This document shows, in pieces, positions 9,300 to 36,476 of a DNA stretch of 64,000 nucleotides; position 1 is the first letter of the stretch; each line of letters opens with the position of its first letter. Under the pieces are notes generated by a model. It made no database searches and had not been told where the DNA came from. It saw only the letters and a program-made list of their open reading frames with translations. Origin of the DNA: Myxococcales bacterium (lineage in GTDB: Bacteria; Myxococcota_A; Polyangia; Polyangiales; DASUME01); NCBI GenBank assembly GCA_047601445.1, contig JASGJH010000001.1, forward strand, positions 8,512,001 through 8,576,000. The letters are read 5' to 3'. Position numbers and translations under genes: made by a program.

Positions 9300-9578
9300 A
9301 TGAACCTGGGAGCAGTCGCGCTTCTCTCAGAACTGATTCGCGCCAGCGTGCGCGAAGAACTCGAGTCAGCTCGCATCGCGTTTGCTCCGCCGCCGGCGGC
9401 TGCCTTGTCTTCGCACGTCGATGTCAAAGAGGCCCGCGTACTCCTGCGCTGCAGCGACAAGACCGTGCGCCGCATGGTGGATCGCGGTCTGCTCAAGAAG
9501 GCCAAGTTGGGGCTCGGGGAGGGCTCAAAGCTGCTGATTTCTCGCGAATCAATCGATCAAGTTCTGGGGGGTGTGTGA
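9300..9578 (+). CDS. excisionase/AlpA-type helix-turn-helix protein
   Basis: VDVKEARVLLRCSDKTVRRMVDRGLL...LISRESID, a MerR-like/HTH_17 pattern; overlaps the primase start; longer start at 9180 possible. Confidence 0.8.
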   Translation: MNLGAVALLSELIRASVREELESARIAFAPPPAAALSSHVDVKEARVLLRCSDKTVRRMVDRGLLKKAKLGLGEGSKLLISRESIDQVLGGV

Positions 9579-16756: not shown

Positions 16757-17041
16757 GACGAGTAGGCTCTCATGAGCCCGACAGCGGTACCAGTCCTTCC
16801 TCTTGGGGCTCGCAAAGGTTCCGTCAGCATGGGCGCGCACGCTCGCCGATCCGGTTTCGGCCGGCCACGGCGGGCTACCGCAGTTCAGCGGCCGGCGCGC
16901 CGGCACCTGCCAGGAAGCTTGACAAGGGCCCGGGAACGCCCCCCGGGCGGTACAGAGGCTTTCGAGCTCCACTATGTTGCGGTAGAATCGGGACACTCGG
17001 CCGCGCCTACTCTCCGTAGAGCGCTGTGGCGCATCGGACTT

Positions 17042-19082: not shown

Positions 19083-20842
19083 CGAAATCGAGCAAGCCAA
19101 CGAACGAGCAGCTTTCAGTTGTCGGGGCTGGTGGGCATCTCCTGGTGCGTGCTTGCCCCGGGGCTGGAAAAACCAGGACCATGGTCGCCTTGGGGGAGCG
19201 GGCTGCTGCAACGGGAGGAGCTCGCTCCGGAGTAGCGTTTCTGTCGTTTACGAATGCTGCAGTTGACGAACTGAACCAGCGTCTTTGTGACACTGCAACG
19301 AATAGGGGGATGACGCGCGCACCGCACTACACGGGGACGTTCGACGCGTTCCTGATCAAGTATGTGCTTGGACCTGATGGGCACTCGCATGCGCCAGGTA
19401 TTCGGGTGCAGTTTCGAGACCACTGGGGAGGGCACCCTATCCGTTTCAAGGCAGGAAAGACGACAATGAGCGTTCCGCTCGATGTCTTTCTTCCAAACGG
19501 TCGCACAGTACGGCTCGACAAGAACCGAGCTCCTCACGGAGCCTATGCGCTACGCGCGTTCTTAGAGCGGCTTGATCAGCAGGAACGCGAGCGCCTGTGC
19601 GAGATTGGGAATCAGGAAGTACGGCGGCGCCTCAAGGCTGGTATCCTGACCTCTCCGTTTCTGCGCTCGGAGGCAAGGAAGCGGCTCGGTCGCGATCGTG
19701 CCAATGCGCATTTGGCCGCGCGCTTTCACACGGTAATAGTTGACGAGGCCCAGGACTGTGACGCAGTTGACCTGGAAATCTTGGACGCGCTCAAAACGGC
19801 TGGCTGCCGTTGCGTCGTGGTTGCCGACCCCGAGCAGGCAATCTTTCGGTGGCGTGATGCGGATCCAGCGCGCCTCTCGCTCCTAGGCTTTCCAGAGATG
19901 AGACTGACTGGCAACTTCCGGTCGAGCGACACGATTTGCCGAGCCGCTGCCACACTGCGAAGCGTCGAGAGTGAACCAGATACCGCCCTGGGACCTGCTG
20001 CCATGGTTCAGAATCCAGTCATTGTGGTGCCCTTCAGCACGGATGATCTCGATTCGGGTAAGGTTTTGGCTGAGTTTACTCAGGCACTCGAGCGAGCCGG
20101 CATAGATACCAAGAGTGCTGCGATTGTTGCTCATCGCGAGGCGCATGCTGGCCGCGTACTTGGAATACGCGACGACATAAGAGCATCAGAATCGTTTGCA
20201 GCTGTGCTGGCGCGGGGTAGTTCTTCGAGTGCCAGCTCGGCAGACCGAACAGCGGCTGTCCAACGACTGCAGGAAACCCTGGCGAGCGCGTTTGATCCGG
20301 CAGCTCGGCAAGATCCGAATCTGAAAGGGTGGATTCATCACACAGCCCGACAGGTGATGGGAGAGCTTGCGGGCCAACACATTTCCTTGTCTGGGGTGTG
20401 TAAGAGTACGAGGAAGATCCTGGCAGGGATCAGTGCGCCGCCGGGTCAGTCGTTTATCAAGGAGCCTGCGAAGTGCTTCACCGCGAAAGGCCGTGGCGCT
20501 GTCACTCCATCTAGCAACTCACCGGGTCCCCTGATGCGGTACTCAACTGTGCATGCCGTTAAGGGGCGAGAATACGACGCAGTCCTCGTGGTGGTTGGCG
20601 ACACAAGTTATTTGGATGAGCTCGTTGACGCATGGCGCGCACGCGACCCGGCCCACGAGGGGCGCGCGGTTCTCTATGTTGCAGCTACTCGCGCGCGCCG
20701 ACTGTTGGTGTTCGCTGTTCCCGCGCGCGTCTGCGACGCGGTTGCGGAACTGCTGAGGCGCCAAGGAGCGCCTGTTCAAGTCGCCTCGGGAGCTCGGGAG
20801 ACCGAGTTCGTGCTGCGTTGGAGCGCGTTGGAAACGGCCTGA
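19079..20842 (+). CDS. gajB: Gabija GajB-like UvrD helicase
   Basis: ACPGAGKT, VIVDEAQD, DPEQAIF, NFRS, TVHAVKGREY, LYVAATRAR; ATGA overlap with gajA. Confidence 0.85.
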   Translation: MTKSSKPTNEQLSVVGAGGHLLVRACPGAGKTRTMVALGERAAATGGARSGVAFLSFTNAAVDELNQRLCDTATNRGMTRAPHYTGTFDAFLIKYVLGPDGHSHAPGIRVQFRDHWGGHPIRFKAGKTTMSVPLDVFLPNGRTVRLDKNRAPHGAYALRAFLERLDQQERERLCEIGNQEVRRRLKAGILTSPFLRSEARKRLGRDRANAHLAARFHTVIVDEAQDCDAVDLEILDALKTAGCRCVVVADPEQAIFRWRDADPARLSLLGFPEMRLTGNFRSSDTICRAAATLRSVESEPDTALGPAAMVQNPVIVVPFSTDDLDSGKVLAEFTQALERAGIDTKSAAIVAHREAHAGRVLGIRDDIRASESFAAVLARGSSSSASSADRTAAVQRLQETLASAFDPAARQDPNLKGWIHHTARQVMGELAGQHISLSGVCKSTRKILAGISAPPGQSFIKEPAKCFTAKGRGAVTPSSNSPGPLMRYSTVHAVKGREYDAVLVVVGDTSYLDELVDAWRARDPAHEGRAVLYVAATRARRLLVFAVPARVCDAVAELLRRQGAPVQVASGARETEFVLRWSALETA

Positions 20843-21051: not shown

Positions 21052-21118
21052 GACCCTTTAACGCACCGAAGGGCTGAACGGTGCCCGCCCAACCCTTCGG
21101 AAACACTCTGTCTTTTAG

Positions 21119-21192
21119 TCGGGGTGGCCGGATTCGAACCAGCGACATCTAGCTCCCAAAGCTAGCGCACTACCAGGCTGTGCTACACCCCG
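21119..21192 (-). tRNA. tRNA-Pro (anticodon TGG)
   Basis: CGGGGTG/CACCCCG acceptor stem, CTAGC-TTTGGGA-GCTAG anticodon arm, GGTTCGAATCC T-loop; followed by CTA rather than CCA. Confidence 0.96.
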
Positions 21193-21201
21193 AGGCCGCG
21201 C

Positions 21202-21230
21202 AAGCTAGCGCAACTCAAGGCAAAACTCAA
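21202..21230 (-). promoter_or_regulatory. sigma70-like promoter of tRNA-Pro
   Basis: Minus strand TTGAGT-17 bp-TAGCTT followed by a GC-rich discriminator just before the tRNA. Confidence 0.55.
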
Positions 21231-21457
21231 GGGCACGCCCAAACGAGCGAAACGCTCGGAAAAGGGCCTCCTTTCAGGCCCAACCCGGGCGCTGTCCCCG
21301 CCCCCTCACAGCATCGCGACCCGACGCTGCACGCGGTCCGCAATTCCGCTGCTCCGGCCCCGCCACGTCCAGGCATGTCCTGACCTCCGGCGCCGAACCA
21401 AGTGCCGTCCGGAATCGCTGCTTCCGATTGCTTGCGTGCTCGCCCAAGCGTTCGTCG

Positions 21458-21712
21458 ATGTCGAGGGCCACGGTGCTCGAGGCTCGCTTGGCTGACTGGT
21501 CGATCTCCGTCGTTCAGCTCGATGCGGGCGGACACACGGGCCTGCTGAGTGTTCATCACGGGGCGTGTCCCGAGGGCACTCGGCCTTGGCCCCAAGCGCA
21601 CTCCTTCTCCACCTTACTGAAGCGCCTCTTCGATGAGCGCAATGGCGATGTCGAGCTCGTCGACGTCGTTTGTTACACGGCGAGGATGCTGCCGCCGTAC
21701 ATCTACAACTAG
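21458..21712 (+). CDS. small hypothetical protein
   Basis: ORF only. Confidence 0.3.
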   Translation: MSRATVLEARLADWSISVVQLDAGGHTGLLSVHHGACPEGTRPWPQAHSFSTLLKRLFDERNGDVELVDVVCYTARMLPPYIYN

Positions 21713-21850
21713 GCTCTCTTGCTCTATCAAGTTGGCGGAGATTGGTGCGCGCGCAACGGCACTTGCTCCCCCAATTGGGATGACTGATCTCACCCCTTTC
21801 GAGGTAGGGGCCTCCTTGACAGACTTTCGTGGTAATCGCATGACTGCGAA

Positions 21851-22469
21851 ATGCCGCCGTCTGCTCCAACACGTGCTTACGATGGGACTACCCGGCGGGC
21901 CCGAGCAGAGGATCTTACCGGGCACATTCTCGACGTCGTCTTGAAAGTGATCGAGGGCCTCGACGCGCCCGATGTCACGCTCGAGGCCGCCGCGAAGGCC
22001 GCTGACGTGGGCGTTCAATCGCTGGTCCGTCGGTTCCGCACCAAGGATGGCCTGTACGCCGCCGCGTTTGCTCGCGCGCGCAGCCAGTACCGTCCTTCGC
22101 GAGAGCAACAGCCCAAGGGCTCCGACACATTCGACTTCATCGTGAAAAGTCAGCTCGACATCTACGAGCGCTGGGGCAAGGCGCTCCTTTATCTTCGGAC
22201 CCAGGAGAACGACCGCCCGGTGCTGCATCGGGAGCTCGAGAATCGGTCGCCGGGAGCGCCGCGCGTGGCTCGAGAAGTTGCTCGCCGAGCGGCTGCCTGA
22301 TGCGCAGCGCGGTGAGGACGCTCTAGCCAAAATCTTCGCGCTCACCGACGTCCACCTGTGGGCCGTGTTTCGCCTCGATATGAAAATGACGCGGCGTCGA
22401 ACGGAGCTCGCCATGGCCGACCTCCTGCGCGGCTACGTCACCAACTTAAGTAAAGGAAATCCGCGATGA
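21851..22469 (+). CDS. TetR-family regulator (frameshift near 22241)
   Basis: HTH VTLEAAAKAADVGVQSLVRRFRTKDGL; removing one A restores LEIGRRERRAWLEKLL and joins ORF 22278-22469. Confidence 0.85.
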
Positions 22470-23212
22470 AGCCCGATGAGATTCTCACGATCAAAGGAGT
22501 CCGAGGCACGCTTCCGTTCGAGGTCTTCAAGCCGCGCGGAGCGGGTCCCTGGCCGGCCGTCTTGATCATCCACGAGCTCATCGGGCTCAATGACGATATT
22601 CGCGGTATCGCGCGGCGCTTCGCCGACAACGGCTATTTGGCGGGTTGTCCCGACTTGATGGCTGATGGCGGGCGCATCAAGTGCGTGCGGTCCGCGCTCG
22701 AGTCGCTGCGCAAGGGCGCTGGGCCCACGGTCGACCAGCTCACCACCGGCATCGAGATGCTGCGGGCGCGTCGCGACACGAGCGACGTGGGAGTCGCGGG
22801 ATTCTGCATGGGTGGCGGCTTTGCGACGTTGCTCGCCACGCGACAGAAGCTTGGAGCAGCAGCTGTTTTTTACGGTGACATCCGCCCCAGCGAAGAGCTC
22901 AAGAACGCATGCCCCATCGTCGGTGGTTACGGCGGCAAGGACAAGGCCTACCGGAGCAAGGGCGAGAAGCTCAAGCAGCGCCTCACGCAGTACGGCATTC
23001 CAAACGACATCGCGATCTACCCGGACGCCGTTCATTCCTACATGAATCGTGGCGTTTCGCCGTTGATGGCCGCACTCATTCGCCCCGTCCTCACGGTGGC
23101 TTACAACGAAGCGGCCGCAGAAGACTCGTGGTCGAGAATGCTCGGCTTCTTCGGAGAGCACCTGCGTAAGGAGCGCGAAGCGATTTCCGTGGGAGAACAT
23201 CAGACTTCTTAG
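22466..23212 (+). CDS. dienelactone hydrolase family protein
   Basis: IIHELIGLN, GFCMGG nucleophile elbow, YPDAVHSY; ATGA overlap with tetR. Confidence 0.9.
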   Translation: MKPDEILTIKGVRGTLPFEVFKPRGAGPWPAVLIIHELIGLNDDIRGIARRFADNGYLAGCPDLMADGGRIKCVRSALESLRKGAGPTVDQLTTGIEMLRARRDTSDVGVAGFCMGGGFATLLATRQKLGAAAVFYGDIRPSEELKNACPIVGGYGGKDKAYRSKGEKLKQRLTQYGIPNDIAIYPDAVHSYMNRGVSPLMAALIRPVLTVAYNEAAAEDSWSRMLGFFGEHLRKEREAISVGEHQTS

Positions 23213-23408
23213 TCGTATGAGTAAATGGAGATCGGATGGCCAGAAGTCTGCTGACCTGCTGGCGACGGTCTTGTTTTGTCCTGCGTGCGCTCGCAGCTTC
23301 GCCGTGGCTAGCGTCAACTGGGCAAAATACACTTGGAATCACCCCCAATTTGCATTGCGCCGAGTCACGGTTGATGTGAGTGTTGTCACCTCTTGGTGAG
23401 GGAGTTCT

Positions 23409-24539
23409 TTGGCTCTCTTACCTTCCGATGTGGAGATCTGTCCAATGCATAAGCCGCCGAGCAGGGCACGTGCCGTGTCCCTGATGCGCATGGATGCGCT
23501 GCACGTTCGCCTCGCTTTCGTCGCAGGCTGTGCGTTGGAAGTTCTGTCGGGTTGTGCCGCCGAGTCGGCTCGCGCCGAGGTCGCGCGCAAGAACGATGCG
23601 ACCCCTGTGCGCCTCGCTCCGGTTCTTCGTGGTGAGGTTGCACGCCCGATCAAGACGTTCGGCGTAGTCGAGGCCAAGTCGCGCATCGATCTGGCATTCA
23701 AGGTCGGCGGTATCGTTCAACGCGTCAACGTCGATGTCGGAACCCGCGTCAAGAAGGGCGCCGTCCTCGCCAGCATCGATCGCACGGAAGTGTTGGTCGA
23801 GGAAGCGCGGGCCAGCGAAGCCATCAAGAAGGCCGAGCGAGACCTCGCGCGTCTGCGGGACTTGCACGCGCTGCGCTCTGCGCCGTGGCTTGACGTCCAG
23901 AATGCGCAGACGACCTTCGAGCTCGCCACTGCGGCTCGTACGCTGGCGAGCTACAACGTCAAGCACTCGGAGCTCGTCGCCCCTGACGACGGGATCATCG
24001 AATTCCGTGCGCTGGACCTGGGCGAGGTCGTGGCTCCTGGTCAGCGTGTGCTGCAGCTGGTGGGCGCCTCGCGCGGGCTAATCGTGAAGACGCAGATCCC
24101 CGAGAGTGAGATCCTGGGGCTCCGTTTGGGGCAGAAAGCGCGCGTTGTGCTCGATGTGTCGCCGGACCAGGTCTTCGAAGGGCACATTAGCTCGATCGCC
24201 CGCGTAAGTACGCCGAGCACGGGGGCGTTTGCCGTCGACATCAGCTTCGACACGCCGGTCGCGACTTCGCTGCCGGCGGGGCTCAGTGCCAAGGTGGAGC
24301 TCGACCGCAGCGAGACTCCGAGCGCCGTGGTGCCGCTCGAATCGCTCATCGAGGGCGACGGTCGCGCAGGGGCTGTCTTTGTGGTCAACGACGGCAAAGC
24401 GAAGCGTCTGCCTGTCTCGGTGAGCTTCGTGGCCAACGGTCAGGTCGGGTTGTCGAGCGCTGAGGGGCTCGCGCAGTGGGTCGTCGATCGCGGCGCGGAT
24501 CAATTGGTAGACGGTTCTGCGGTCGTCGTCGTTCCCTGA
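23409..24539 (+). CDS. RND efflux membrane-fusion (periplasmic adaptor) protein; start uncertain
   Basis: LAFKVGGIVQRVNVDVGTRVKKGAVLA, LVAPDDGII; lipobox-like LSGC. Confidence 0.9.
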   Translation: MALLPSDVEICPMHKPPSRARAVSLMRMDALHVRLAFVAGCALEVLSGCAAESARAEVARKNDATPVRLAPVLRGEVARPIKTFGVVEAKSRIDLAFKVGGIVQRVNVDVGTRVKKGAVLASIDRTEVLVEEARASEAIKKAERDLARLRDLHALRSAPWLDVQNAQTTFELATAARTLASYNVKHSELVAPDDGIIEFRALDLGEVVAPGQRVLQLVGASRGLIVKTQIPESEILGLRLGQKARVVLDVSPDQVFEGHISSIARVSTPSTGAFAVDISFDTPVATSLPAGLSAKVELDRSETPSAVVPLESLIEGDGRAGAVFVVNDGKAKRLPVSVSFVANGQVGLSSAEGLAQWVVDRGADQLVDGSAVVVVP

Positions 24540-24551
24540 TAGGAGGTTTCG

Positions 24552-27500
24552 GTGTTGGCGAGGTTCTCGGTTCAGCGGTGGCAGTTTACCCTCGTGGTGT
24601 TTGGCGCCCTCTTGGCGCTGGGCGTCTACGCGCTGGTGAGCATCCCAAAGGCCGAGGATCCGACCTTTCCGATTCCCAACTTTCGCGTGGTTGCCGTGCT
24701 GCCTGGCGCACAGCCTCAGGAGCTCGAGCGGTCGGTCATCGATCCCATCGAGACCAAGCTTTCTACCCTCGAAGACCTGAAGCGAATCCGCAGCGAAGCT
24801 CGCGACGGCGTAGCGGTGATCTTCGCCGAGTTCCACCCGGAGATCGACAGCGACCGCAAGCACGACGAGGTCCAGCGTGAGGTCAATGCGCTGCGTGGGC
24901 TGTTGCCGGCCCAGCTCTCGCGTCTCGACGTCACCATGTACAACGCCGCCAATGTCCATGTGTTGGAACTGGCGCTGACCAGCGATGGGGCGGCCTACCG
25001 CGCTCTCGACTCTGTCGCGCGCCGTCTGAAGCGCCGCCTCGAGAGCGTGACGGGCGTGGGCGATGTCCAAATTTCTGGTTTGCCCAAGCGTGAAGTCACG
25101 GTGACGCTCCATGCGGCCCACATGGTCGCAAACCACATCTCGCCGCTCGAGATCTACCGTGCGATCTCGGAGGATAGCGCGAGCGTGCCAGCGGGCAGCA
25201 TCGAGGTCGGTGCCCGACGCATGAACGTGGTCGCCGGCGGCGAGTACGAGTCGCTGGACGAGATCCGCTCCACTGTGATCCGCACGGTCGATGGTGTGCC
25301 GCTCACGGTAGGGCAGGTCGCGGACGTGGTCCTGACCGACGCCGAGGCCTCGCACATCGCGCGCTTCGACGGACAGCGCGCGGTGCTGATCGCGGTTGCG
25401 GCCCGCGAGGGCCAGAGCGTTCTGCAGGTGATGAAGGCGGTGGACACAGAACTCGCGGCGTTCGAACCCACCTTGCCGTCGAACGTGCGGCTACAGCGTG
25501 GCTTCGAACAGGCGGTGAATGTCGAGCGCCGTCTCGGCATGTTCGCGCGAGACTTTCTGCTGGCCATCGTGATCGTCCTGGCCACCTTGCTCCCGCTCGG
25601 CCTGCGTGCCGCGACCGTCGTGATGGTCTCGATCCCGCTCAGCTTGTCGATCGGCGTCTTCCTTCTGAAGCAGTGCGGCTTTAGCGTCAACCAACTGAGC
25701 CTGGTGGGCTTCGTGCTCGCGCTCGGATTGCTGGTCGACGACTCCGTGGTCGTGGTGGAGAACATTACGCGTCACGTGCGCGAAGGGCGTTCGCCACGCG
25801 AGGCGGCCGTACGTGCTACCCAGGAAATTTCGGCGAGCGTGCTCGGCTGCACGGCCACCTTGATCTTGGCGTTCGTTCCCCTGCTGGCCCTGCCGGGCGC
25901 CTCCGGACAGTTCATTCGCTCGATGCCCCTGGCCCTGGTGCTTACCGTGGGAGCCTCGCTACTCGTGTCGCTCACGGTCGTGCCTTTCCTGGCGAGCATC
26001 CTGATCAAACCCGAGGCCGAGCACGGTAACGCTTTCTTTCGCGGGATGATCTGGCTCGTCGAGGGGGCCTATCGACCCATCCTCGGTCGCGCGCTTGCAC
26101 ATCCGTACCTCACGCTGGTCGCGACGGCGCTGCTCTTCGCAGGCAGCATCGCGCTGATCCCGCGCGTCGGGTTCAGCCTCTTTCCAAAGGCCGAAATTCC
26201 CCAGTTTCTGGTCAAAGTCGAGGCGGGCGAGGGCGCGAGCTTGGCGGAGACTGACCGCGCCACGCGCTACGTCGAGGCGGTGCTTGCGCGCCATCCGGAG
26301 GTAAGTCGGGTCGCCAGCACCATCGGCAAAGGCCAACCGCAAATCTACTACAACGTGCAGCCGGCCGCGGAGAAGACCAACACCGCCGAGGTGTTTGCGC
26401 AGGCCGACAGCAAGAGCCCCGAACGACGTGCGAAGCTCTTTCAAGCGCTGAGGCAAGAGCTCGCGACCTTTGCGGGTGCGCGCATCGAGCTCTTCGAGTT
26501 CGAGAATGGCCCTCCGGTCGAGGCGCCCATCGCGTTGCGCCTCATCAGCGATGACGAAGCAGCCCTGCGCGTCGCCGCGGGCTACGTGGAAAAGCAGCTG
26601 AAGGAGACCCGGGGAACGCGAGACGTCAAGAACCCCATGCGGGCTCGGCGTACCGACCTTCGCATCGAACTCGACCGTGAGCGGGCCGGTCTCGTCGGCG
26701 TGAGCCTGCCGGCCGCGGAGCAGATGATTCGCCTGGCGGTCGGCGGCGTGCGTGCCGGGTCGTTTCGTGAGAGCGGAGCAGACGAAGCCTACGCGGTGCG
26801 CTTGACGCTACCACGCGAGCAGACGCCCACGATGGGTGGGGCGCGACCTGGACTGGAGGTGCTCGAGGCGCTGCACGTGCCGAACCACAAGGGCGATCCA
26901 GTGCCGCTCACGCAGTTCTCCCGCGACGTCTTCGAGCCGTCGGCGACGACCATTCGTCACCACAACCGCGAGCGCGGTACCACCGTGAGCGCCTTCGTGG
27001 AGCCTGGCTTCAACGTGGGCCATGTGACCAACGACGTGCTGTCGCGCATCGCTCAACGAGCTCTGGCTGGGGTGCGCCTGGTGCCAGCGGGCGAACTCGA
27101 AACGCGAAACGAGAGCTTTGGTGGCCTCGGGGTCGCGCTGATTGTGGCGGCCTTCGGCATTCTGGGCGTACTGGTCCTGGAGTTCGGCAACTTCAAGGGA
27201 ACGGCCATCGTCGCGTCCGTGATCCCGTTGGGGGTCATCGGCGGCGTGCTCGCGCTGTGGTTCAGTGGTAACGCACTGTCGTTCATCGCCACGGTAGGGT
27301 TCATCGCGCTGATGGGCATCGAAGTGAAGAACTCCATCTTGCTGGTGGACTTCACGAACCACCTTCGCGCTCAAGGCGCGAGTATCGACGACGCCATCAT
27401 GCGTGCCGGCGAGACCCGCTTCGTGCCGGTCTTGCTCACCACGCTGACGGCCATCGGCGGCCTCATTCCGCTCATCCTGTCGAAATCCGCGCTCTACTCG

Positions 27501-27677
27501 CCACTGGCGTGGGTCATCCTGGGTGGCCTCATCAGTTCCACGATTCTTACGCGCATCGTTACGCCGGTGCTCTACCGGTTGCTTGCGCCCCGCGTTGAGT
27601 TGCACGCGGGCGAAGGTGTTCAGGACGCGGCTCAGAGCTTCGTTTCGCCGGAATCTCTGCCGAGTCAGGTTGTCTAA
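24552..27677 (+). CDS. RND efflux permease (AcrB/CzcA family)
   Basis: 1041 aa; GLLVDDSVVVVENI, KNSILLVDF, RFVPVLLTT. Confidence 0.95.
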   Translation: MLARFSVQRWQFTLVVFGALLALGVYALVSIPKAEDPTFPIPNFRVVAVLPGAQPQELERSVIDPIETKLSTLEDLKRIRSEARDGVAVIFAEFHPEIDSDRKHDEVQREVNALRGLLPAQLSRLDVTMYNAANVHVLELALTSDGAAYRALDSVARRLKRRLESVTGVGDVQISGLPKREVTVTLHAAHMVANHISPLEIYRAISEDSASVPAGSIEVGARRMNVVAGGEYESLDEIRSTVIRTVDGVPLTVGQVADVVLTDAEASHIARFDGQRAVLIAVAAREGQSVLQVMKAVDTELAAFEPTLPSNVRLQRGFEQAVNVERRLGMFARDFLLAIVIVLATLLPLGLRAATVVMVSIPLSLSIGVFLLKQCGFSVNQLSLVGFVLALGLLVDDSVVVVENITRHVREGRSPREAAVRATQEISASVLGCTATLILAFVPLLALPGASGQFIRSMPLALVLTVGASLLVSLTVVPFLASILIKPEAEHGNAFFRGMIWLVEGAYRPILGRALAHPYLTLVATALLFAGSIALIPRVGFSLFPKAEIPQFLVKVEAGEGASLAETDRATRYVEAVLARHPEVSRVASTIGKGQPQIYYNVQPAAEKTNTAEVFAQADSKSPERRAKLFQALRQELATFAGARIELFEFENGPPVEAPIALRLISDDEAALRVAAGYVEKQLKETRGTRDVKNPMRARRTDLRIELDRERAGLVGVSLPAAEQMIRLAVGGVRAGSFRESGADEAYAVRLTLPREQTPTMGGARPGLEVLEALHVPNHKGDPVPLTQFSRDVFEPSATTIRHHNRERGTTVSAFVEPGFNVGHVTNDVLSRIAQRALAGVRLVPAGELETRNESFGGLGVALIVAAFGILGVLVLEFGNFKGTAIVASVIPLGVIGGVLALWFSGNALSFIATVGFIALMGIEVKNSILLVDFTNHLRAQGASIDDAIMRAGETRFVPVLLTTLTAIGGLIPLILSKSALYSPLAWVILGGLISSTILTRIVTPVLYRLLAPRVELHAGEGVQDAAQSFVSPESLPSQVV

Positions 27678-27719
27678 GTAAGGGTCGAAGACCCGTTCGT
27701 AAGGGTCGAAGACCCGTTC
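27678..27719. repeat. 21-bp perfect tandem duplication, each unit with a GGGTC-GAA-GACCC palindrome
   Basis: GTAAGGGTCGAAGACCCGTTC x2 directly after the RND stop. Confidence 0.85.
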
Positions 27720-27743
27720 CCCCGCATCGTTCGTTTCGTGTCT

Positions 27744-27762
27744 TGACGACGTTCTGTCGTCA
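27744..27762. promoter_or_regulatory. 7-5-7 palindrome, candidate operator
   Basis: TGACGAC-GTTCT-GTCGTCA upstream of the biosynthetic operon. Confidence 0.4.
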
Positions 27763-27887
27763 TGATGCTTCGCGTCTGTAGAACGACAGTGCACGAGCAC
27801 TGGCGCTGAAAAGTTTCAACGGGTGAGCCTGCGTGGCGCACTCGGCGTGGCTTCCATTGCCTTCTTACCGCCCCCCCCAGGAGTTCC

Positions 27888-29075
27888 GTGGATAACCTCA
27901 ATAACCCGGTCGTGCGCGCGTTCTCGGATGCAAATGGAGAGCGCAACAAAAGCCAACGTCATCACTGGTGGCCCGTGGCCTACAGCTCGGAGCTCGGTTC
28001 CGACAAGCCCCTGGCCATCAAGCTATTCGGCGAGCCGCTCGCGCTGTTTCGAGGCAAGGACCGGGTTGGCTGTGTTGCGGATGTATGTCCGCACAAGTCG
28101 GCCGCGCTCTCCGCAGGCTTCGTCGAAAACGGAGAGCTCGCATGTCGTTACCATGGCTGGCGCTTTGACCCAGGAGGCGCATGTTCCTATCCCGAGGAGC
28201 TGAGAGACCGACGTAAGACGGCGCGCTACGCGTATCCGGCGCTGGACGACGGGCTCTTGATTTGGGTGTTCCCCTCCACCGACGAGCCGGTCGAGTTCGT
28301 GAATCCGGTGCTCGAGCACGCACGGCGCGTCGGCGCGAAAATCCGCGCATTCAAGCCACGAAAGTTCGAGTTCGACCAACCCTGGGAGCTCTGGGCAGCG
28401 AGCTTCGTCGACGGTACTCACCACGAGTACGCCCACCCCAAGACGTTCATGGAATCGCAGCGCGACACGCTCACCTTCATGTTCGACCCCGCGCTGAGTC
28501 CGGCTGCCATGGTGGTCCGCGGTCGTCACGATCGCACCATGGGAGTGCTCGCCTATCTGACTTTCAGTCCGGAGGAAGAAGGCAGACACAAGCAGTTCCT
28601 GACTCTCTTCCCGACCTCCGACATCCTCCCGGGTCCATTGAGTTGCGGCATCTTCCGCACATTCCGCATCGCGGAGTTGCTCTATCAAGTGGTCTACGAA
28701 GACTACTACTTGATCGTGAAGCAAGCGGAGCGCATTCGCCAAGGCGCTTCCAAGTGGGGCATTCGCGGCCGCTATGGCGCGCCAACGTCGGATCAGTTCA
28801 TCGACTGGCACCGCGAACGTGAGCTCGATCCTGTCTGGTTCCACGCCTACGGCGCCGACGGCATGCCCGTCCTCGGTGCGGGGGACGCATCCCCGCGGCC
28901 TGGCAAGCCCGCGCTGCCGATTCTCCAGGATTCGGGCCCGGAACTTGGACCGACGCTCGCGCGGACGCCGCGGGCTACCTTCGAAGATGCGAGCCCCAGC
29001 ACCTGGAGCAGATTGGCTCTCTATGACCGCGTGGTGAAGGGAATCGCGGAGGGCGCATTGCGCATGTCTCGCTAG
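27888..29075 (+). CDS. Rieske non-heme iron oxygenase
   Basis: CPHK...CRYHGW Rieske motif; DGTHHEYAH mononuclear-iron motif; AGGAG RBS. Confidence 0.9.
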   Translation: MDNLNNPVVRAFSDANGERNKSQRHHWWPVAYSSELGSDKPLAIKLFGEPLALFRGKDRVGCVADVCPHKSAALSAGFVENGELACRYHGWRFDPGGACSYPEELRDRRKTARYAYPALDDGLLIWVFPSTDEPVEFVNPVLEHARRVGAKIRAFKPRKFEFDQPWELWAASFVDGTHHEYAHPKTFMESQRDTLTFMFDPALSPAAMVVRGRHDRTMGVLAYLTFSPEEEGRHKQFLTLFPTSDILPGPLSCGIFRTFRIAELLYQVVYEDYYLIVKQAERIRQGASKWGIRGRYGAPTSDQFIDWHRERELDPVWFHAYGADGMPVLGAGDASPRPGKPALPILQDSGPELGPTLARTPRATFEDASPSTWSRLALYDRVVKGIAEGALRMSR

Positions 29076-29125
29076 GGCGGTCTGGCCGTCCGCTTCCTGA
29101 CTGTCCATTCACAAGGAGTTCTGAG

Positions 29126-31229
29126 GTGACCCCAAGCTTCGAAAATCTAGTTGATGCCGCACGCGCACGCGGGATGGAGTGCGAAGGTCGTCCGATGTAC
29201 ACGTTCCTCGAGGACGGAGAGTCGAACGCGCGAAGTCTGACTTCGGCTGAGCTCGACAGGCACGCCCGATCCGTGGCGGCCGCGTTGCAAGCGCGCTTTG
29301 CCCCAGGCTCGCGGCTGGTGTTGGCCTTGCCGCCAGGACTCGACTACGTGGTCTCGTTCTGGTCCTGCCTGTACGCGGGGGTTTGCGCCGTTCCGCTCTA
29401 TCCACCCATGAACCCCAAGCATGTGGGTCGCATGATCTCGGTGATGCGAGACTGCGACGCGGCGGGCGTCATCACGCTCGGCGCCTTCGCTGGCATCATG
29501 GGGAGCTGGCTGTCGGCCCAGGGCACCGACCCCACGCAGTATCAGTGGCTGAGCATTGATGGAATCGCGCGCGACGAGTTCGCCGCTTGGACGCGCCCAG
29601 CGCTCGAGCCAGAGTCGATCGCCTTCCTGCAGTACACCTCGGGCTCCACCGGCGAGCCCAAGGGGGTCATGCTGAGCCACCGCGCGCTGACCTACAATTC
29701 CAAGGTGATTTACGAGGCCTACGAGCAGGTCTTCGAGACCGCCAAGCAGCCGCTGGGCAAGGTTTCGGTGAGCTGGCTGCCCCCCTATCACGACCTCGGG
29801 CTGATCGACGGCGTTCTGCAGCCGGCCCTTGCGGGCAAGCACGCCGTGTTGATGTCGCCGCTGGCGTTCCTCGAAAAGCCCGCGCGCTGGCTGAAGGCCA
29901 TCACCAAGTATCGTGGGACCACGTCGGGCGGCCCCTGCTTCGGCTACGACCTGTGCGAGCGCAAGGTCTCCGAGGCAGACCTTGCGGAGCTCGACCTGAG
30001 CTCCTGGTACTGCTCCTACAACGCGGCCGAGCCGATTCGGCGTGAGGTCGTCGAGCGGTTCACGGCGAAGTTCGAGCGCTGCGGCTATCAGCGTCACGCG
30101 TTCACGCCCGTCTACGGACTGGCCGAGGCGTCGCTGATGGTGACCGGTGACTGCAAGTTCGGCAACAACTACTGGGTCGCGCTCGATCGAGACAAGCAGA
30201 GCGAGGCCGTCGTGGTGCGCGGCCCGAGCAACAAGACCGACTATGCCCTGGTCTCCCTGGGACACGCTCGCGGGGACACCAAGCTGCGCGTGGTGAACCC
30301 CGAGACGATGCGGCCTTGCGCGCCGCGCGAGATCGGCGAGGCATGGATCTCGGGCTCGAGCTTGGCTCATGGTTACTGGGGCAAGCCCGAGCTGAACGCG
30401 GCGGTGTTCTCGGCGTTCACGCGCGACGCCGACGGTGCTCAGCTCGAAGGACCCTTCTTCCGCACGGGAGACCTGGGCTTTCTCACGGAGGATGGGACCT
30501 TCTTCATCAGTGGCCGGCTCAAGGATCTCATCATCCTGCGCGGCAAGAACCACTACCCGCAGGACATCGAAGCGAGCGCGCAGCACGGGCACGCCAGCCT
30601 ACGCGGCGGTGGCGGCGCGGCATTCTCGGTGCAAGGCGCCGATGGCGAAGCCCTGGTCCTGGTGCAAGAGGTTCGAGCCAACGTGCCGCCAGAGTCTTGG
30701 CCGGACATCTTGCGGGCGGCCGAGCGGGCCATCGTCGAGAACCATGGCGTGACTCCCCACGACATCGTCTTGATCGCCCACAACGGTTTGCCCAAGACAT
30801 CCAGCGGGAAGATCCGGCGCTTCAAGGCCCGTGAGAAGTACCTGGACGGGTCGATGACCATCCTCGCGAGCTCGCGGGGGAGCCGCGAAACGGAGAGCGC
30901 CGAGCGAGAGAAGCGCCTCCGCAAGGTCGAGCGCAAGATGGTGGCCTGGATTGCCGAGCACGCCGACCTCGAGCTCCAGGCGGTGGGTCGCGACACGGAC
31001 TTCGCGGAGTTCGGCATCGATTCCGTGGCGGTGGTGGAGCTGATCTGCGAGGTCGAAGAGGTGGTGGGCTTCAGAGATCGCCGACGGCGCAGCGTCGCAA
31101 TGCCGGACGGTGGCCCAACTGCTGGCCTTCCTCGAGACCGATGCGGCGCGCGCGGGTCGGAGCCCGGTTGAGCCGGCTCCGGCGCCCAGCGATGGCGCGA
31201 CTGTGGAGTTCGTGGTGCCGAGGCTCTGA
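29126..31229 (+). CDS. fatty acyl-AMP ligase fused to an acyl carrier protein (frameshift near 31073)
   Basis: FLQYTSGSTGEPKG, SWLPPYHDLGLI, YGLAEA, RTGDLGF, LPKTSSGKIRR; ACP motif FGIDSV; removing one A completes the ACP (FEIADG...TVAQLLAFL). Confidence 0.92.
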
Positions 31230-31283
31230 CGAGGAGCCCACAAAGAGAACGAAGGCCATCCTGAGGATGGAAAGGGTGTTGCT

Positions 31284-32471
31284 ATGATATCGGACGTAGA
31301 CGGAAGCGTACTGACTGATTTCAGAACCGTTCAGCTGACGGAGCCGAAAAAACAAGAGGACGTGTTGAACTACTTCGCCTGGGTGATCGCGGCGCACCGC
31401 TGTCGCGACCTGAAGGTCAAGGAGGCGACCGAAGCGCAGGCCATCATGGCCGATGTCAAAGAGAAGGTGTGGGCCTATGGCGTAACGCCGGAGCATATCC
31501 GCGCGCGCCAGCTCAACGCACTGCCTAGTCTATCTGGAGAGGCCAGCAATACGCCGGGGCTCCCCGACCTGATGAGCTTCGAGGATGGCCCCCAGGGGGG
31601 CGACTTGAGGCACAAGATGAAGCGCTACAAAGACGTGGCGCGTGCAGCCTTCGAGAAGGCGTATGACCGGGATGCGACCCGGCCAAGCAGTTTGATCCAC
31701 GTCACGTGCGCTGGATACGTGTCCCCCAGCGCGGCACAGGAGTTCGTTTCAGAGCGCGGCTGGAACGATACCGGCGTGACCCACTCCTACCACATGGGGT
31801 GCTACGGCGCGTTTCCTCCGGTCAAGATGGCGACGGGCTATCTGGCACGCGGTGCCACGGATGGGCTCGGGTTCAATGACGAGCAAGTCGACATCGTGCA
31901 CACGGAGTTCCTCTCCTTGCACGGGGACTACTCGACCGTCGATCCCGGCTCGCTCGTGAACATGACGCTGTTCGCCGACGGCTTCGCCAAGTACTCCGTG
32001 GTCCGCAAGAGTCGCCTGGCTGGGCGTCCTGGCCTCGAGGTGGTGGCGCAGTTCGAGACGATCATCCCGGATACCAGCGCCGAGATGACGTGGGCGCCCA
32101 CCGGGCGGCTCTTCGAGATGTACCTTGCCCGCACAGTGCCACTGCGTATCAAGCAGCACATCCGTCCTTTCGTGGCGGAGCTCTGCCGACGTGCGGGACT
32201 GGAGCTCGAGCGCGACAAGGAAGACTTGGTGTTCGCCATCCATCCGGGAGGTCCCAAGATCCTCGATCACATCAAGCAAGAGCTGGGCATCACCGAGCAG
32301 CAGATGCACTGGAGTCGCGAGGTGCTCAACGAGCTCGGGAATATGTCGTCCTCCACGATTCCTCACATTTGGAGTCGCATGCTGGAGAGCACGGAGGTGG
32401 GAACACACGTAGTCAGCATGGCGTTTGGCCCGGGTCTCACGGCCACCGGTCTCGTGCTGAGAAGGGTCTAG
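31284..32471 (+). CDS. type III polyketide synthase
   Basis: Cys-His-Asn triad: HMGCYGA, AIHPGGPKIL, GNMSS; C-terminal AFGPGLT. Confidence 0.95.
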   Translation: MISDVDGSVLTDFRTVQLTEPKKQEDVLNYFAWVIAAHRCRDLKVKEATEAQAIMADVKEKVWAYGVTPEHIRARQLNALPSLSGEASNTPGLPDLMSFEDGPQGGDLRHKMKRYKDVARAAFEKAYDRDATRPSSLIHVTCAGYVSPSAAQEFVSERGWNDTGVTHSYHMGCYGAFPPVKMATGYLARGATDGLGFNDEQVDIVHTEFLSLHGDYSTVDPGSLVNMTLFADGFAKYSVVRKSRLAGRPGLEVVAQFETIIPDTSAEMTWAPTGRLFEMYLARTVPLRIKQHIRPFVAELCRRAGLELERDKEDLVFAIHPGGPKILDHIKQELGITEQQMHWSREVLNELGNMSSSTIPHIWSRMLESTEVGTHVVSMAFGPGLTATGLVLRRV

Positions 32472-32473
32472 TC

Positions 32474-33442
32474 ATGGCGCAAAACGTCGCACATTTCGAA
32501 TACAACGGAAAACTCGGTTGGGGCTTGGTCTCGGAGGAATTCATCCAGCCCTTTCCCGAATCGTGGGGCTCCACCACGGCCGAAATCATCGCCCACAAGG
32601 CTGAAATCCGTGCGCTCGCTGCGTCGCCCGGGAAGGCGTGGGGCGAAAGCATCGCGCTCGAGAGCGTGAACCTACTAAGCCCGATCACGACGCCCTGCCG
32701 CATCTACTGCCAGGGCATGAACTACCGATCGCACCTCGAGAGCGCAAACGTCTCGACCAAGGACCGCGGATTCAACACGTTCTTCACCAAGTCCTCGGCA
32801 TCCGTCACGGGGCCACGCGGGTCCATCGTGCGCCCGGCGCACGTCCAGCTACTCGACTACGAGCTCGAGCTCGGCCTCGTCATCGGTCGGGAAGTTCGCT
32901 CCGAGCAGACGGTCTCGGAGCAAGGGTTGAGTGACGTCGTCGCTGGGTTGGTCATCGGCAACGATGTGTCGGCTCGCTGTGTTCAGCTCACGCAGGTGCA
33001 GTTCTTCAAGGGTAAGAGCTATCGCTCGTTCTGCCCGCTCGGCCCGTATCTCTGCCTGCTCGATGCGGACGAGTATCACTACATCGACAAGCTCGATCTG
33101 CATCTGCGGGTCAACGGCGCGACGCGTCAGAGTGACACGACCGCCAACATGATCTTCAAGCCCGCCGAGACGCTCACCGAGCTGACTCAGTTCGCCGATC
33201 TGCACGTCGGCGACGTGGTGCTCACGGGGACGCCAGGCGGTTGCGCGGTGAAGGCGCCGACCAACAAGGCGCTTCTGTTGGCGGCGAAGCTCATGCCGGA
33301 GGCCATGAAGTGGCGCGTCTTCGTGAAGAAGCAGCTCGCCATTGAAGAGTACTTGCGCCATGGGGACGTCGTGCGCGCGAGCATCGTGAGCAAGGACCGC
33401 CGCATCGACCTCGGCGAGCAGATTCATCAGGTGATGGCCTGA
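32474..33442 (+). CDS. fumarylacetoacetate hydrolase family protein
   Basis: GMNYRSH, LDYELEL, NDVSAR, KGKSY, GDVVLTGTPGG; ATG 2 bp after the PKS stop. Confidence 0.92.
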   Translation: MAQNVAHFEYNGKLGWGLVSEEFIQPFPESWGSTTAEIIAHKAEIRALAASPGKAWGESIALESVNLLSPITTPCRIYCQGMNYRSHLESANVSTKDRGFNTFFTKSSASVTGPRGSIVRPAHVQLLDYELELGLVIGREVRSEQTVSEQGLSDVVAGLVIGNDVSARCVQLTQVQFFKGKSYRSFCPLGPYLCLLDADEYHYIDKLDLHLRVNGATRQSDTTANMIFKPAETLTELTQFADLHVGDVVLTGTPGGCAVKAPTNKALLLAAKLMPEAMKWRVFVKKQLAIEEYLRHGDVVRASIVSKDRRIDLGEQIHQVMA

Positions 33443-33459
33443 TCCGGGAAGGAGATCGC

Positions 33460-34533
33460 ATGCTGCAGAAAGTCATCCCGTTGAGCGAGCCCAAAGAGGC
33501 AGCGCTCGCGCACGCCACGCGCCTGGTCTACCTGGTGTTCGAGCGTCGAAACCTCGGAGCGCAACAGACCTTCATGGAGGAGTTTGGACTCACGACCCTG
33601 TCGCAGCAGGGACGTACCCTCTACATGGGAGCCCAAGCCGAGTCGTTCTACTGCTACCGCTGTGAGGAGGGGGCGCGGGATGGCTTGCTCGGCTTCGGCC
33701 TCGCCGTCTCGGAGCGCGCCGAGCTCGAGCGTCTCGCGCAGCGCTTCGGGGTTGCGAGCGAGTTCCATGCATGGCCACTTCCGCATGAGAAGATCGTGCT
33801 ACGCGACCCCAACGGGTTGGCCATCGAGGTGCTTTGGATGGCGGGTGACGTTGACCCCAGTCGGGACGCCCGCCCAGCCGCGAGTCCGCGCGGCCGTGGT
33901 GAGGAGATTCGCTTGGTGTCGCGCCCGGCACGGATCCACAAGCTAGGTCACTTGGTGCTCGACGTCTTCCGGTTTCAGGAATCCGTGGCCTGGTATCGGG
34001 AGCTGTTCGGGATGTTGCCGACCGATGTGTTGTGCCTGGACAGCGGCGAGCCAGTCGTGGCGTTCATGCGCTTCGACCGCGGCAGCGCCCTCACCGAGCA
34101 TCACAGCCTGGTCATCAGCTCGAACATTCAGGTCGGCTGCAACCACAGCGCCTACGAGGTTTCCAGCCTGGACGACATGGCGATGGGCCAGCAGGTTCTG
34201 CAGGCGCGTCGTCGTCGGCATGTCTGGGGCATTGGTCGCCACTTGCTCGGCAGTCAGCTCTTCGACTATTGGCGTGATCCGGCGGGTGAAGTCGTCGAGC
34301 ACTACTTCGATAGCGACCGCTACGACGCATCGCGACCCGTCGAGTATCACCGCTTGTCGAGCAGTGGACTCTACCAATGGGGGCCGAACGTGCCGGCCGG
34401 ATTCGGTCTGCCCAAGCTCGACGCCCAGAAGCTGCAGCACCTGTTCAAAGCCGCTTTCGCAGGCGACCTGAAGCTCGGGCGCGTGCTGCGCATGAAGAAG
34501 CAAATGTCCGAACCCGCCAAGGCTTGGCTCTAG
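33460..34533 (+). CDS. VOC-superfamily extradiol ring-cleavage dioxygenase
   Basis: Two VOC modules; KLGHLVL, EHHSL, NHSAYEV, WGIGRHLLGSQLFDYWRDPAGEVVEH. Confidence 0.88.
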   Translation: MLQKVIPLSEPKEAALAHATRLVYLVFERRNLGAQQTFMEEFGLTTLSQQGRTLYMGAQAESFYCYRCEEGARDGLLGFGLAVSERAELERLAQRFGVASEFHAWPLPHEKIVLRDPNGLAIEVLWMAGDVDPSRDARPAASPRGRGEEIRLVSRPARIHKLGHLVLDVFRFQESVAWYRELFGMLPTDVLCLDSGEPVVAFMRFDRGSALTEHHSLVISSNIQVGCNHSAYEVSSLDDMAMGQQVLQARRRRHVWGIGRHLLGSQLFDYWRDPAGEVVEHYFDSDRYDASRPVEYHRLSSSGLYQWGPNVPAGFGLPKLDAQKLQHLFKAAFAGDLKLGRVLRMKKQMSEPAKAWL

Positions 34534-34543
34534 GAGCTTCCGT

Positions 34544-36241
34544 ATGAGGTCTCAGGAGACGATCGACGTAGCGATTGTTGGCGCGGGGCCCGTGGGCCTC
34601 ACGCTGTCGGCCAAGCTCGCTCAAATGGGCCTCAAGGTCGTGTGTTACGAGGAGAATCAGGCGCTCTACGCCTTCCCGAGAGCAGTCGGCCTCGACGACG
34701 AGTCACTGCGCGCCTTTCATGGACTGGGCATCGGCGAGCGGGAGCTCGACCCGTGCCTGATGAATTGTGCGGGCATCAAGTACTATGGCGAACATGGGCA
34801 GTTCCTGACCATGATCCACCCCAAGGAGCGGCCCTACGGGCACTTCAAGGGCGCGAGCTTCTACCAGCCATTTCTCGAGAATTTGCTGCTCCAGCGAGCG
34901 TGCGCGCTGGGGGCCAAGGTGCAGTTCGGAGCGCGCGTAGTCGGGCTCGAGCTCAACGGCGACCATGCGCTGCTGATGCTGCAAGGCGAGACGGGAGTTC
35001 GTCACCAAGTTGCGAGCTATGTCGTGGGTTGCGATGGATCTCGAAGCTTCGTTCGCAAAAATCTGCGGATCGGCTTCAAGGGGACGACTTTCGAGCAGCG
35101 TTGGTTGGTGGTGGACACGGCCAACGACGTGTGGCCGGAGCGCTACGCCGAGGTCTGGTGCTCGAGCGCGCGGCCGACCGTGACCATCCCGCGCCGGCAA
35201 GGCTTTCGGCGTTGGGAGTTCATGCTGAAGCCGGGCGAGGATGCTGCGGACTTCGACACGCTGGACAAGATTCGACCGCTCCTCGAACAGCGCGTGCCTG
35301 TCGATCGCATCGAGATTGAGCGCTTCAACGTCTACACGTTTCACTCGCGCGTGGCGGACAGCTATCGTCGCGGACGCGTGTTCTTGGCAGGCGATGCTGC
35401 CCACGTCATTCCGCCCTTCATGGCGCAGGGCATGGCCGCGGGCGTGCGCGATGCGGAGAACCTGGCTTGGAAGCTCGCCGGTGTGATCAAGGGCAGGCTG
35501 CGTGAGCAGGTGCTGGATTCTTACGAGACTGAGCGGCGACCTCACTTGTTGGCGATGGGCAAGCTGTCCGAGCGCGCGGGCGCCTTCATGATGCCGCAGA
35601 GCCGCTTGCGCTCATTGACCAAGGATTTCGTCGTGCGCGCCCTGCATCGTATCCCGGGAGTAGCGAGCGCCGTCGAGGAAGCGCGCATGCGGCCCGACCC
35701 AATTTACCGGGCGGGGCTGTTCTCACGCCAGCCGAGCGACACGTTCGCTGGAAGCATGTTCCCGCAACCGCTGGTGCGCGATACGGCCGGCGTCGACGGT
35801 CTGCTAGACCTCCACCTCGGCGCTGGCTTCTCATTGGTCTGCTATGGCGCCGCCGAACGCCCGCTCCTTGCAGCACTCCAGGAACGGCTCACTAGGCTTG
35901 GTTGTCGTGCGCTACAGATTGCGCCGCAGGGGTTGCACGTGGATCAGCGATTCAAGCGCTTGCCCGATGCGACGCTCGTTGAGGATCGTCATAACGCCAT
36001 CGGTGCGTGGCTGCGGGACCGCGAGGCGTCATGCTTCTTGCTGCGGCCCGATCGCTACGTCATCGCCAGCTTCTCGCTGTATGCGCAAAGCGAGCTCGTG
36101 GCGTGGTTAGATGGAGAGCTGTTGAATCCAGGGCGCGCCGAGCTTTCGCCGCCGCTCGAGCGCGCCGTGCGTGCGGGAAAGTCCCAACCCACAAGCCCCG
36201 GTAACGGCGCCGCGGGTGTGCGCCACACGGCTTCCGTCTGA
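34544..36241 (+). CDS. FAD-dependent aromatic hydroxylase (MhpA/PheA-like)
   Basis: VGAGPVGL, GCDGSRSFVR, LAGDAAH...QGMAAGVRDAENLAWKL, C-terminal LRPDRY. Confidence 0.93.
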   Translation: MRSQETIDVAIVGAGPVGLTLSAKLAQMGLKVVCYEENQALYAFPRAVGLDDESLRAFHGLGIGERELDPCLMNCAGIKYYGEHGQFLTMIHPKERPYGHFKGASFYQPFLENLLLQRACALGAKVQFGARVVGLELNGDHALLMLQGETGVRHQVASYVVGCDGSRSFVRKNLRIGFKGTTFEQRWLVVDTANDVWPERYAEVWCSSARPTVTIPRRQGFRRWEFMLKPGEDAADFDTLDKIRPLLEQRVPVDRIEIERFNVYTFHSRVADSYRRGRVFLAGDAAHVIPPFMAQGMAAGVRDAENLAWKLAGVIKGRLREQVLDSYETERRPHLLAMGKLSERAGAFMMPQSRLRSLTKDFVVRALHRIPGVASAVEEARMRPDPIYRAGLFSRQPSDTFAGSMFPQPLVRDTAGVDGLLDLHLGAGFSLVCYGAAERPLLAALQERLTRLGCRALQIAPQGLHVDQRFKRLPDATLVEDRHNAIGAWLRDREASCFLLRPDRYVIASFSLYAQSELVAWLDGELLNPGRAELSPPLERAVRAGKSQPTSPGNGAAGVRHTASV

Positions 36242-36476
36242 CTGAGGAAAGGATCTGCGCGCCCGCATGCAACCGGGCCAGAGCGCGGGCTCCGAACACC
36301 TCTTCGGCGAAGAGCAGCCCGGCGGTGCCCTGCTGCTCGGCTCGCGTGCAGAGCGTGTCGACGTCGCGGCAGCCCTCGGCGTCGAGACTTGCCTTGCGGC
36401 CCGCAATCAGCAGTCCTACAGATTGCGGCTTTGCAGATGGCGGCTCTGAGGGTGGCCGCTCGCGACTCGCTCCGCC

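Follow-up and report, generated by a model that had tools for sequence, protein, structure and literature searches.

Why should a bacterium carry, in one block of genes, enzymes that would build an aromatic ring and enzymes that would open it again? The question is raised by a block in a Myxococcales genome (GenBank assembly GCA_047601445.1), where we analysed a stretch of 64,000 nucleotides (positions 8,512,001 to 8,576,000 of contig JASGJH010000001.1; hereafter the window, with coordinates counted from its first nucleotide) that lies within a single contig of 9.5 Mb. In this block a fatty acyl-AMP ligase fused to an acyl carrier protein (FAAL-ACP) and a type III polyketide synthase (PKS) are followed by a trio of ring-fission genes, which code for a fumarylacetoacetate hydrolase (FAH)-superfamily enzyme, a vicinal oxygen chelate (VOC) dioxygenase and a flavoprotein hydroxylase (FMO). 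The cluster is real and rare, and it is probably conserved. The reading that we tentatively favour, at just short of an even chance, is that the block is biosynthetic: an alkylresorcinol would be converted through a hydroxyquinol into a ring-opened 2,4,6-trioxo lipid or a pyrone, and exported. The core genes are as follows.

27888..29075, + strand: Rieske oxygenase of the KshA/VanA type, from a rare subfamily, with cluster and iron motifs
29126..31229 when read through a frameshift (the assembled open reading frame, ORF, ends at 31171), + strand: FAAL-ACP didomain, with FAAL families as best matches (below cut-off) and PF00550
31284..32471, + strand: type III PKS of the ArsB/ArsC family, with triad C173-H320-N353 and W270
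32474..33442, + strand: FAH-superfamily enzyme (PF01557)
33460..34533, + strand: two-domain VOC extradiol-type dioxygenase, with six catalytic residues and a fold model
34544..36241, + strand: MhpA-like FMO (NF004829, 405.5 bits against a cut-off of 390)

The original prediction, made from the sequence of this DNA, had described six co-oriented genes, with only 2, 17 and 10 bp between successive genes from the PKS to the FMO. Re-examination of the ORF coordinates confirmed this arrangement and placed all six on the + strand, and the enzyme families that it named hold up against Pfam and NCBIfam profiles. The start of the FAH gene was taken to be the true ATG at 32474, rather than the position further upstream given in the ORF list. 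The FAAL-ACP gene is flanked by gaps of 50 bp on its 5' side and 54 bp on its 3' side, the latter counted from the read-through stop. From gene spacing we infer that the block is an operon; a promoter/terminator scan found no promoter-like site and nothing above chance, and a repeat scan also gave nothing above chance. A near-tandem duplication of ~21 bp lies at 27678-27720 of the window, directly after the stop codon of an upstream resistance-nodulation-division (RND) permease gene and 5' of the Rieske gene.

What would the PKS make? Its Cys-His-Asn triad is intact (C173-H320-N353), as predicted. Its closest relatives of solved structure are ArsC of Azotobacter and the G284W mutant of ArsC (PDB 3VS9/3VS8, E = 2e-95/1e-93; the next match is at 9e-23), and identity to the ArsB/ArsC family of Azotobacter is ~43%. 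Counted from an alignment with a one-residue offset, W270 corresponds to the Trp of 3VS9 (ArsB W281 / ArsC G284W) and M279 to Met293. According to a review, a Trp at ArsB 281 / ArsC 284 switches cyclisation to alkylresorcinol (PMC6274091; here and below, statements about published systems reflect the portions of the sources that were available). We therefore rejected a pyrone-forming PKS, and the earlier proposal of alkylresorcinols or alkylpyrones narrows to its first half: the aldol-type W270 supports an alkylresorcinol, and the predicted product from sequence is a 5-alkylresorcinol or its acid. Trp occupies this cyclisation-determining position in 98 of 139 PKS homologs. In 40 of the 139 (among P0002-P0140) the residue is Leu, neither Trp nor Gly, which is possibly a third state.

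The adenylation domain of the FAAL-ACP has FAAL families as its best profile matches, all below their cut-offs. Fused to it is an ACP with the PP-binding serine at Ser632, and a phosphopantetheinyl transferase (PPTase) family gene is present in the genome. The FAAL-ACP plus PKS core is reused elsewhere with differing tailoring sets: in locus L102 (7617-17775), genes for a FAAL-ACP and an ArsB-family PKS precede those for a further adenylation enzyme, an MMPL transporter and a LolA-like protein, and L101 has FAAL-ACP, PKS, an acyl-CoA dehydrogenase and a PPTase. In an uncultured betaproteobacterium, one ORF of 1,081 amino acids (L022:7931-11173) fuses FAAL, ACP and ArsB-family type III PKS.

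The original prediction had overlooked a frameshift in the ACP. A single additional base near 31073 changes the reading frame within the domain, so that the assembled ORF ends at 31171 and the other frame stops at 31229; PF00550 is covered over positions 7-46 of 67 as assembled and over 7-67 when read through. A TetR-like gene upstream is also frameshifted near 22240, beyond which a second frame runs on to 22469. Could the cluster be decaying, with both genes truly frameshifted, and make nothing in this strain? There are two frameshifts in ~4,600 codons, where the background would predict 0.33-0.55 (P = 0.04-0.10); that background is frame changes in 5 of 117 genes relative to a same-genus genome, 3 of the 5 being clean. 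However, of 8 frame-change sites examined, 7 are situated about 3 nt or less from TCGA–at window positions 17520, 22240 and 31073 and at four places elsewhere in the genome, core genes included–and such zones make up 8.9% of the genome; the eighth site could not be aligned, and the association was judged by eye for a motif noticed after the fact. This clustering suggests systematic, methylation-linked base-calling error, so the ACP frameshift is probably a sequencing error. The other genes of the block have no in-frame stops, and we consider a decaying cluster very improbable. Given this concentration of inserted bases at TCGA, apparent pseudogenes elsewhere in the genome call for caution.

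The FMO exceeds the cut-off of the MhpA-like family NF004829, scores below cut-off for the MhpA equivalogs, and carries the GxGxxG, DG and GD motifs (FAD fingerprints). In the VOC protein, residues H164, H215, H229, H261, Y270 and E280 are invariant in 17/17 sequences and align with BphC, where their counterparts are the His-His-Glu iron ligands and the second-sphere His, His and Tyr. With all six present, we rejected an inactive VOC. Its model (predicted local distance difference test score, pLDDT, of 85) has a two-domain VOC fold, and the fold matches are catechol extradiol dioxygenases. Natural FMO-VOC fusions of ~870 amino acids also exist (P0320 and P0368, one of them named from Sphingomonas).

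Every substrate and product in the pathway that we propose is a prediction. The FAAL-ACP would load a fatty acid, and the ArsB-type PKS would extend the acyl-ACP with three malonyl units to give the 5-alkylresorcinol or its acid. MhpA hydroxylates the ring position flanked by a hydroxyl and the alkyl group; acting in the same way, the FMO would produce a 6-alkylbenzene-1,2,4-triol. The same triol could alternatively arise by decarboxylative hydroxylation, as shown for the fungal enzyme PaB (PMC11371914). Cleavage by the VOC enzyme beside the alkyl carbon would then yield R-CO-CH2-CO-CH2-CO-COOH, a 2,4,6-trioxo fatty acid, from which ring closure may give a 6-alkyl-4-pyrone-2-carboxylate or a lactone. 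We predict with good confidence that the PKS product is processed by the FMO and the VOC. Beyond that, the FAH enzyme might tautomerise, cyclise or partly trim the trioxo acid instead of fully hydrolysing it, the Rieske enzyme might oxidise the chain or ring using a reductase encoded elsewhere, and an RND pair encoded upstream would probably export the ring-opened lipid.

The suggestion of a non-hydrolytic FAH comes from its lid, a feature that the original prediction had also not noticed. The metal-site E-x-E, D and K are present (DYELE at 128, NDVSAR at 163, KGK at 179), and the lid reads H87-L-E-S90, that is, H-x-x-S in place of H-x-x-E. In the 20 FAH homologs encoded beside PKS-free VOC genes, this position is acidic without exception (19 Glu, 1 Asp). 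In FAHD1 the His-Glu pair has been suggested as the source of the attacking hydroxide (PMC8398924). The Rieske protein has a CxH..CxxH motif at 67, the residues D175-H178-H183, and D272; its best solved matches are DdmC, SxtT, NdmA and KshA, and its Atlas neighbours are KshA-like. It has only 3 representatives at E ≤ 1e-30, and its fold model was unusable (pLDDT 36). We found no Rieske reductase in the block, and there are 8 Fer2 matches elsewhere in the genome.

The same enzymes allow another interpretation, that the block makes a product and disposes of it. The product would be an alkylresorcinol, or its hydroxyquinol or quinone, serving as a signal, antibiotic or membrane lipid, and the trio, co-expressed for turnover or self-protection, would convert it to pyruvate and a (beta-keto) fatty acid, much as orcinol catabolism does with its substrate. 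This is the main rival because ordinary FAH hydrolysis returns fatty acid and pyruvate, and we regard it as a real possibility. The trio is chemically complete, and the best NCBIfam match of the FAH protein is a 2,4-diketo acid hydrolase, below the cut-off. Synthesis and turnover are co-transcribed in rpfB-rpfF, a precedent for this arrangement. Alkylquinones are end products in Streptomyces griseus and Myxococcus xanthus, which oxidise type III PKS alkylresorcinols to them (PMC10896814). Disposal does not account for the Rieske enzyme, however, nor for the loss of a lid Glu that is retained in the PKS-free homologs, and degradative genes coupled to the synthase without a regulator of their own would amount to a futile cycle. 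The original prediction is thus supported in part: its new lipid metabolite is only modestly favoured, because MhpA-type hydroxylation, proximal cleavage and an ordinary FAH would together give (beta-keto) fatty acid and pyruvate, undoing the synthesis, an outcome in line with the alternative that the prediction itself had named.

Is the pairing of the PKS with the trio conserved? The closest homologs of the PKS (P0002, P0003 and P0124; 67-70% identity), the VOC (P0144, P0143 and P0142; 57-59%) and the FMO (P0262, P0532 and P0264; about 65-68%) are all reported on contigs of 64,681, 11,211 and 11,427 bp. We deduced co-location from these equal contig sizes. Further size matches were few: one among 16,440 PKS-VOC pairs, none for PKS-FMO, none for VOC-FMO, one for Rieske-PKS and one for Rieske-FMO. 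The PKS and VOC trees are congruent, with this genome outside the 64,681-bp contig and the 11,211- and 11,427-bp contigs as a pair, and the linked VOCs and FMOs are set apart by branches of 1.1-1.2 changes per site (support 100/100). The FMO tree recovers the same clade and the pairing of 11,211 with 11,427, with one extra member (P0265). Because of the equal contig sizes and the congruent PKS and VOC trees, the PKS-VOC-FMO linkage is likely conserved on three other contigs, so the PKS probably does occur with the VOC and FMO of the trio in other genomes, a point on which the original prediction had staked itself.

This linkage bears on a further alternative, that two unrelated modules lie side by side in a cargo region: a catabolic cassette for outside phenols and an alkylresorcinol synthase. 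The block does sit in a lower-GC variable segment next to a tRNA-Pro gene, and the trio occurs in none of the more distant PKS loci described below. Against this, the linkage has likely persisted on three contigs while the proteins diverged by 30-43%, the PKS and VOC trees agree, and all members of the VOC clade have a size-matched PKS contig except one, which is on a contig of 2,519 bp. We therefore think unrelated modules highly unlikely.

Among the loci sampled outside this lineage the two halves occur apart. FAH, VOC, FMO and Rieske genes were found in 0/160 loci of more distant PKSs (≤50% identity), of which 108 hold at least 3 kb of downstream sequence, and FAAL was found in 6/160. Scans of genome, metagenome and viral collections found no PKS above 50% identity. 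The VOC was matched in 25 of 400 sampled genomes of the phylum, and when 20 of 29 VOC loci were widened (up to 20 kb), 15 had FAH, 14 had FMO, and none had PKS or FAAL, a distribution that also counts in favour of disposal. The wide distribution of the FAH-VOC-FMO trio without a PKS makes it likely that a biosynthetic block took up a catabolic cassette; judging by these sequences, the simplest history would be recruitment by one PKS sub-lineage, which then retained the cassette while the proteins diverged by 30-43%. Of 14 annotated PKS-free VOC loci, 9 have a TetR gene within ~5.5 kb (74 of their 107 ORFs were scanned). In this block the trio has no adjacent regulator, and FAH starts 2 bp past the PKS stop.

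A Rieske homolog (P0382, 44% identity) and an ArsB-type PKS from a Burkholderia cluster (P0135) are both on contigs of 11,414 bp, possibly a second type of Rieske plus PKS cluster. A chance size match of this kind was also seen at 2,808 bp, too short for both genes. Following this lead, we found no close PKS in a 400-genome family sample (5 genomes unscored).

We weighed the biosynthetic reading against the points that tell against it. In its favour we count the probable PKS-VOC-FMO linkage, W270, the co-oriented RND pair and Rieske oxygenase, the direct coupling of FAH to the PKS and the lack of a regulator beside the trio, the lid change, the FAAL-ACP-PKS fusion in L022, the FMO-VOC fusions and the fungal precedent described below. 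On the other side, FMO, VOC and FAH are exactly enough for complete breakdown, the fungal build-then-cleave clusters list no FAH in the part of the source available (PMC11371914), and the ACP is broken as assembled. We see the lid change in a single sequence, where E89 might take over the role, and the lid Glu is also missing from 3R6O, the best PDB match of the FAH. Linkage on the related contigs is inferred for PKS, VOC and FMO only; the FMO tree leaves the branching order within the clade undecided, and VOC or FMO is matched on only 3 of the 6 contigs of the linked PKS clade, the unmatched contigs being two short ones of 3,409 and 3,991 bp and one of 17,361 bp. Sister PKS clusters (P0004-P0007, 56-62% identity), one of them on a 250-kb contig, have no VOC or FMO match. 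Sister PKSs without a linked trio imply that the uncleaved product is useful alone, as disposal supposes.

The original prediction recognised no characterised cluster with this combination, and the searches run, which did not include MIBiG or antiSMASH, likewise returned no match; in the literature searched (subscription journals not covered) we found no description of a cluster with a type III PKS and an extradiol dioxygenase. The closest parallel, which the original prediction had missed, is with the fungal penicillic acid (pa) and multicolosic acid (mta) clusters, in which a PKS and a flavin hydroxylase lead to 6-methylbenzene-1,2,4-triol, followed by ring cleavage (PMC11371914). Like the predicted pathway here, these start from a polyketide resorcinol ring, hydroxylate it to a 6-alkyl- or 6-methyl-benzene-1,2,4-triol and cleave it with a biosynthetic dioxygenase, and the pa cluster also has a transporter and a regulator. 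The fungal enzymes, as far as described in the available text, are a non-reducing PKS (plus a highly reducing PKS), a DUF4243 hydroquinone dioxygenase, and short-chain dehydrogenase/reductase or glucose-methanol-choline oxidoreductase finishing enzymes; here FAAL-ACP, type III PKS, catechol-type VOC, FAH and Rieske enzymes stand in their place. The likeness, drawn by analogy, is one of convergent logic and not homology: the block may work like pa/mta and is not a member of that family. The precedent originally proposed for a biosynthetic VOC, LmbB1 (L-DOPA 2,3-dioxygenase), holds as a looser parallel: its extradiol cleavage serves biosynthesis, but it is a small, distinct VOC whose substrate is an amino acid and not a polyketide of the same cluster (PMC12311729). 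The fungal gallate pathway was rejected as a parallel, as it uses a DUF3500 enzyme and not a VOC (PMC10832562).

The front half of the block resembles the Ars and Ftp systems. Azotobacter ArsB/ArsC (3VS8/3VS9) belong to the same PKS family and accept acyl-ACP, and the PKS of this block has the ArsB-type Trp, but in Azotobacter priming is by the type I fatty acid synthase ArsA and the product is kept as a cyst lipid (PMC6274091); loci L036 and L047 contain no ring-fission genes. In M. xanthus Ftp a FAAL primes a type III PKS, and in Ftp and S. griseus Srs the alkylresorcinol is oxidised, but both end at alkylquinones, and the available text describes no extradiol dioxygenase or FAH (PMC10896814). 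The back half resembles orcinol and Dnt catabolism. DntB/DntD of 2,4-dinitrotoluene catabolism are a flavin monooxygenase and a trihydroxy-arene extradiol dioxygenase, and DntG is an FAH-family enzyme. Pseudomonas putida orcinol catabolism uses a flavin monooxygenase, a trihydroxy-arene extradiol dioxygenase and an FAH-type hydrolase, and ends in breakdown. As far as the descriptions at hand go, both routes differ from this block in being purely catabolic, with outside substrates and no synthase. The likeness to DntD is drawn from function, and DntD was not named among 50 plasmid matches.

The block is an acquired, variable, strain-specific segment. Among nine same-genus genomes (72-99% complete) we found no close PKS homolog (best match 34%) and no VOC, so that we rejected a genus-wide feature, and a search of 400 genomes from the order found this Rieske oxygenase in none (E = 1e-25). 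We examined five same-genus contigs, and in two of them only ~170-280 bp separates tRNA-Pro from the match to rph; here the distance is 19 kb. The RNase PH of this genome is closer to those of two Polyangiaceae genomes (53-55%) than to those of Paraburkholderia or Blastocatellia (48-50%), a slight indication of a myxobacterial host. GC content is 0.638 in 21200-36400, compared with 0.663 genome-wide. Gene content, gene order, catalytic residues and this absence from relatives are all direct observations. The co-oriented block is larger than the six genes of the original prediction, whose inventory was correct as far as it went but missed four genes preceding the Rieske gene. Together with the tRNA they are:

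21118..21192, − strand: tRNA-Pro(tgg), the left landmark of the ~19-kb variable segment
21851..22469, + strand: TetR-like regulator, candidate cluster member (PF00440 at 21.6 bits, below cut-off; frameshifted near 22240)
22466..23212, + strand: dienelactone hydrolase family protein (PF01738), candidate cluster member
23409..24539, + strand: RND periplasmic adaptor (TIGR01730, above cut-off), candidate cluster member
24552..27677, + strand: RND permease (RND families), candidate exporter and cluster member

The permease has a 60% identical paralog elsewhere in the same genome. Just left of the tRNA, a lower-GC region contains a Gabija defence pair, GajA and GajB (17040-20842), in which the GajA gene is frameshifted near 17520 as assembled. 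This region also holds a prim-pol gene (9575-11938), an integrase-core transposase gene (5506-6381), a TIR-like gene (762-1796), and DUF4062, DUF2971 and AlbA_2 genes.

Type III PKS products are usually seen as end points–resorcinols, pyrones or quinones–and both leading readings extend that picture. At its boldest, the biosynthetic reading holds that a small bacterial lineage converted an entire cassette for phenol degradation into the tailoring enzymes of a type III PKS, with a non-hydrolytic FAH and an exported new class of lipids (2,4,6-trioxo fatty acids or 6-alkyl-4-pyrone-2-carboxylates), and so reinvented the fungal logic; in this full form we consider it unlikely. If the biosynthetic reading is true, the block would yield a lipid scaffold of a new, ring-opened kind and a VOC/FAH pair that serves biosynthesis, and bacteria would have their own equivalent of the fungal penicillic acid route. 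If the product is instead disposed of, the block would be a genetically defined route of alkylresorcinol turnover. Either way, it points to a probable substrate class, 5-substituted resorcinols, for the widespread FAH-VOC-MhpA-like cassette.

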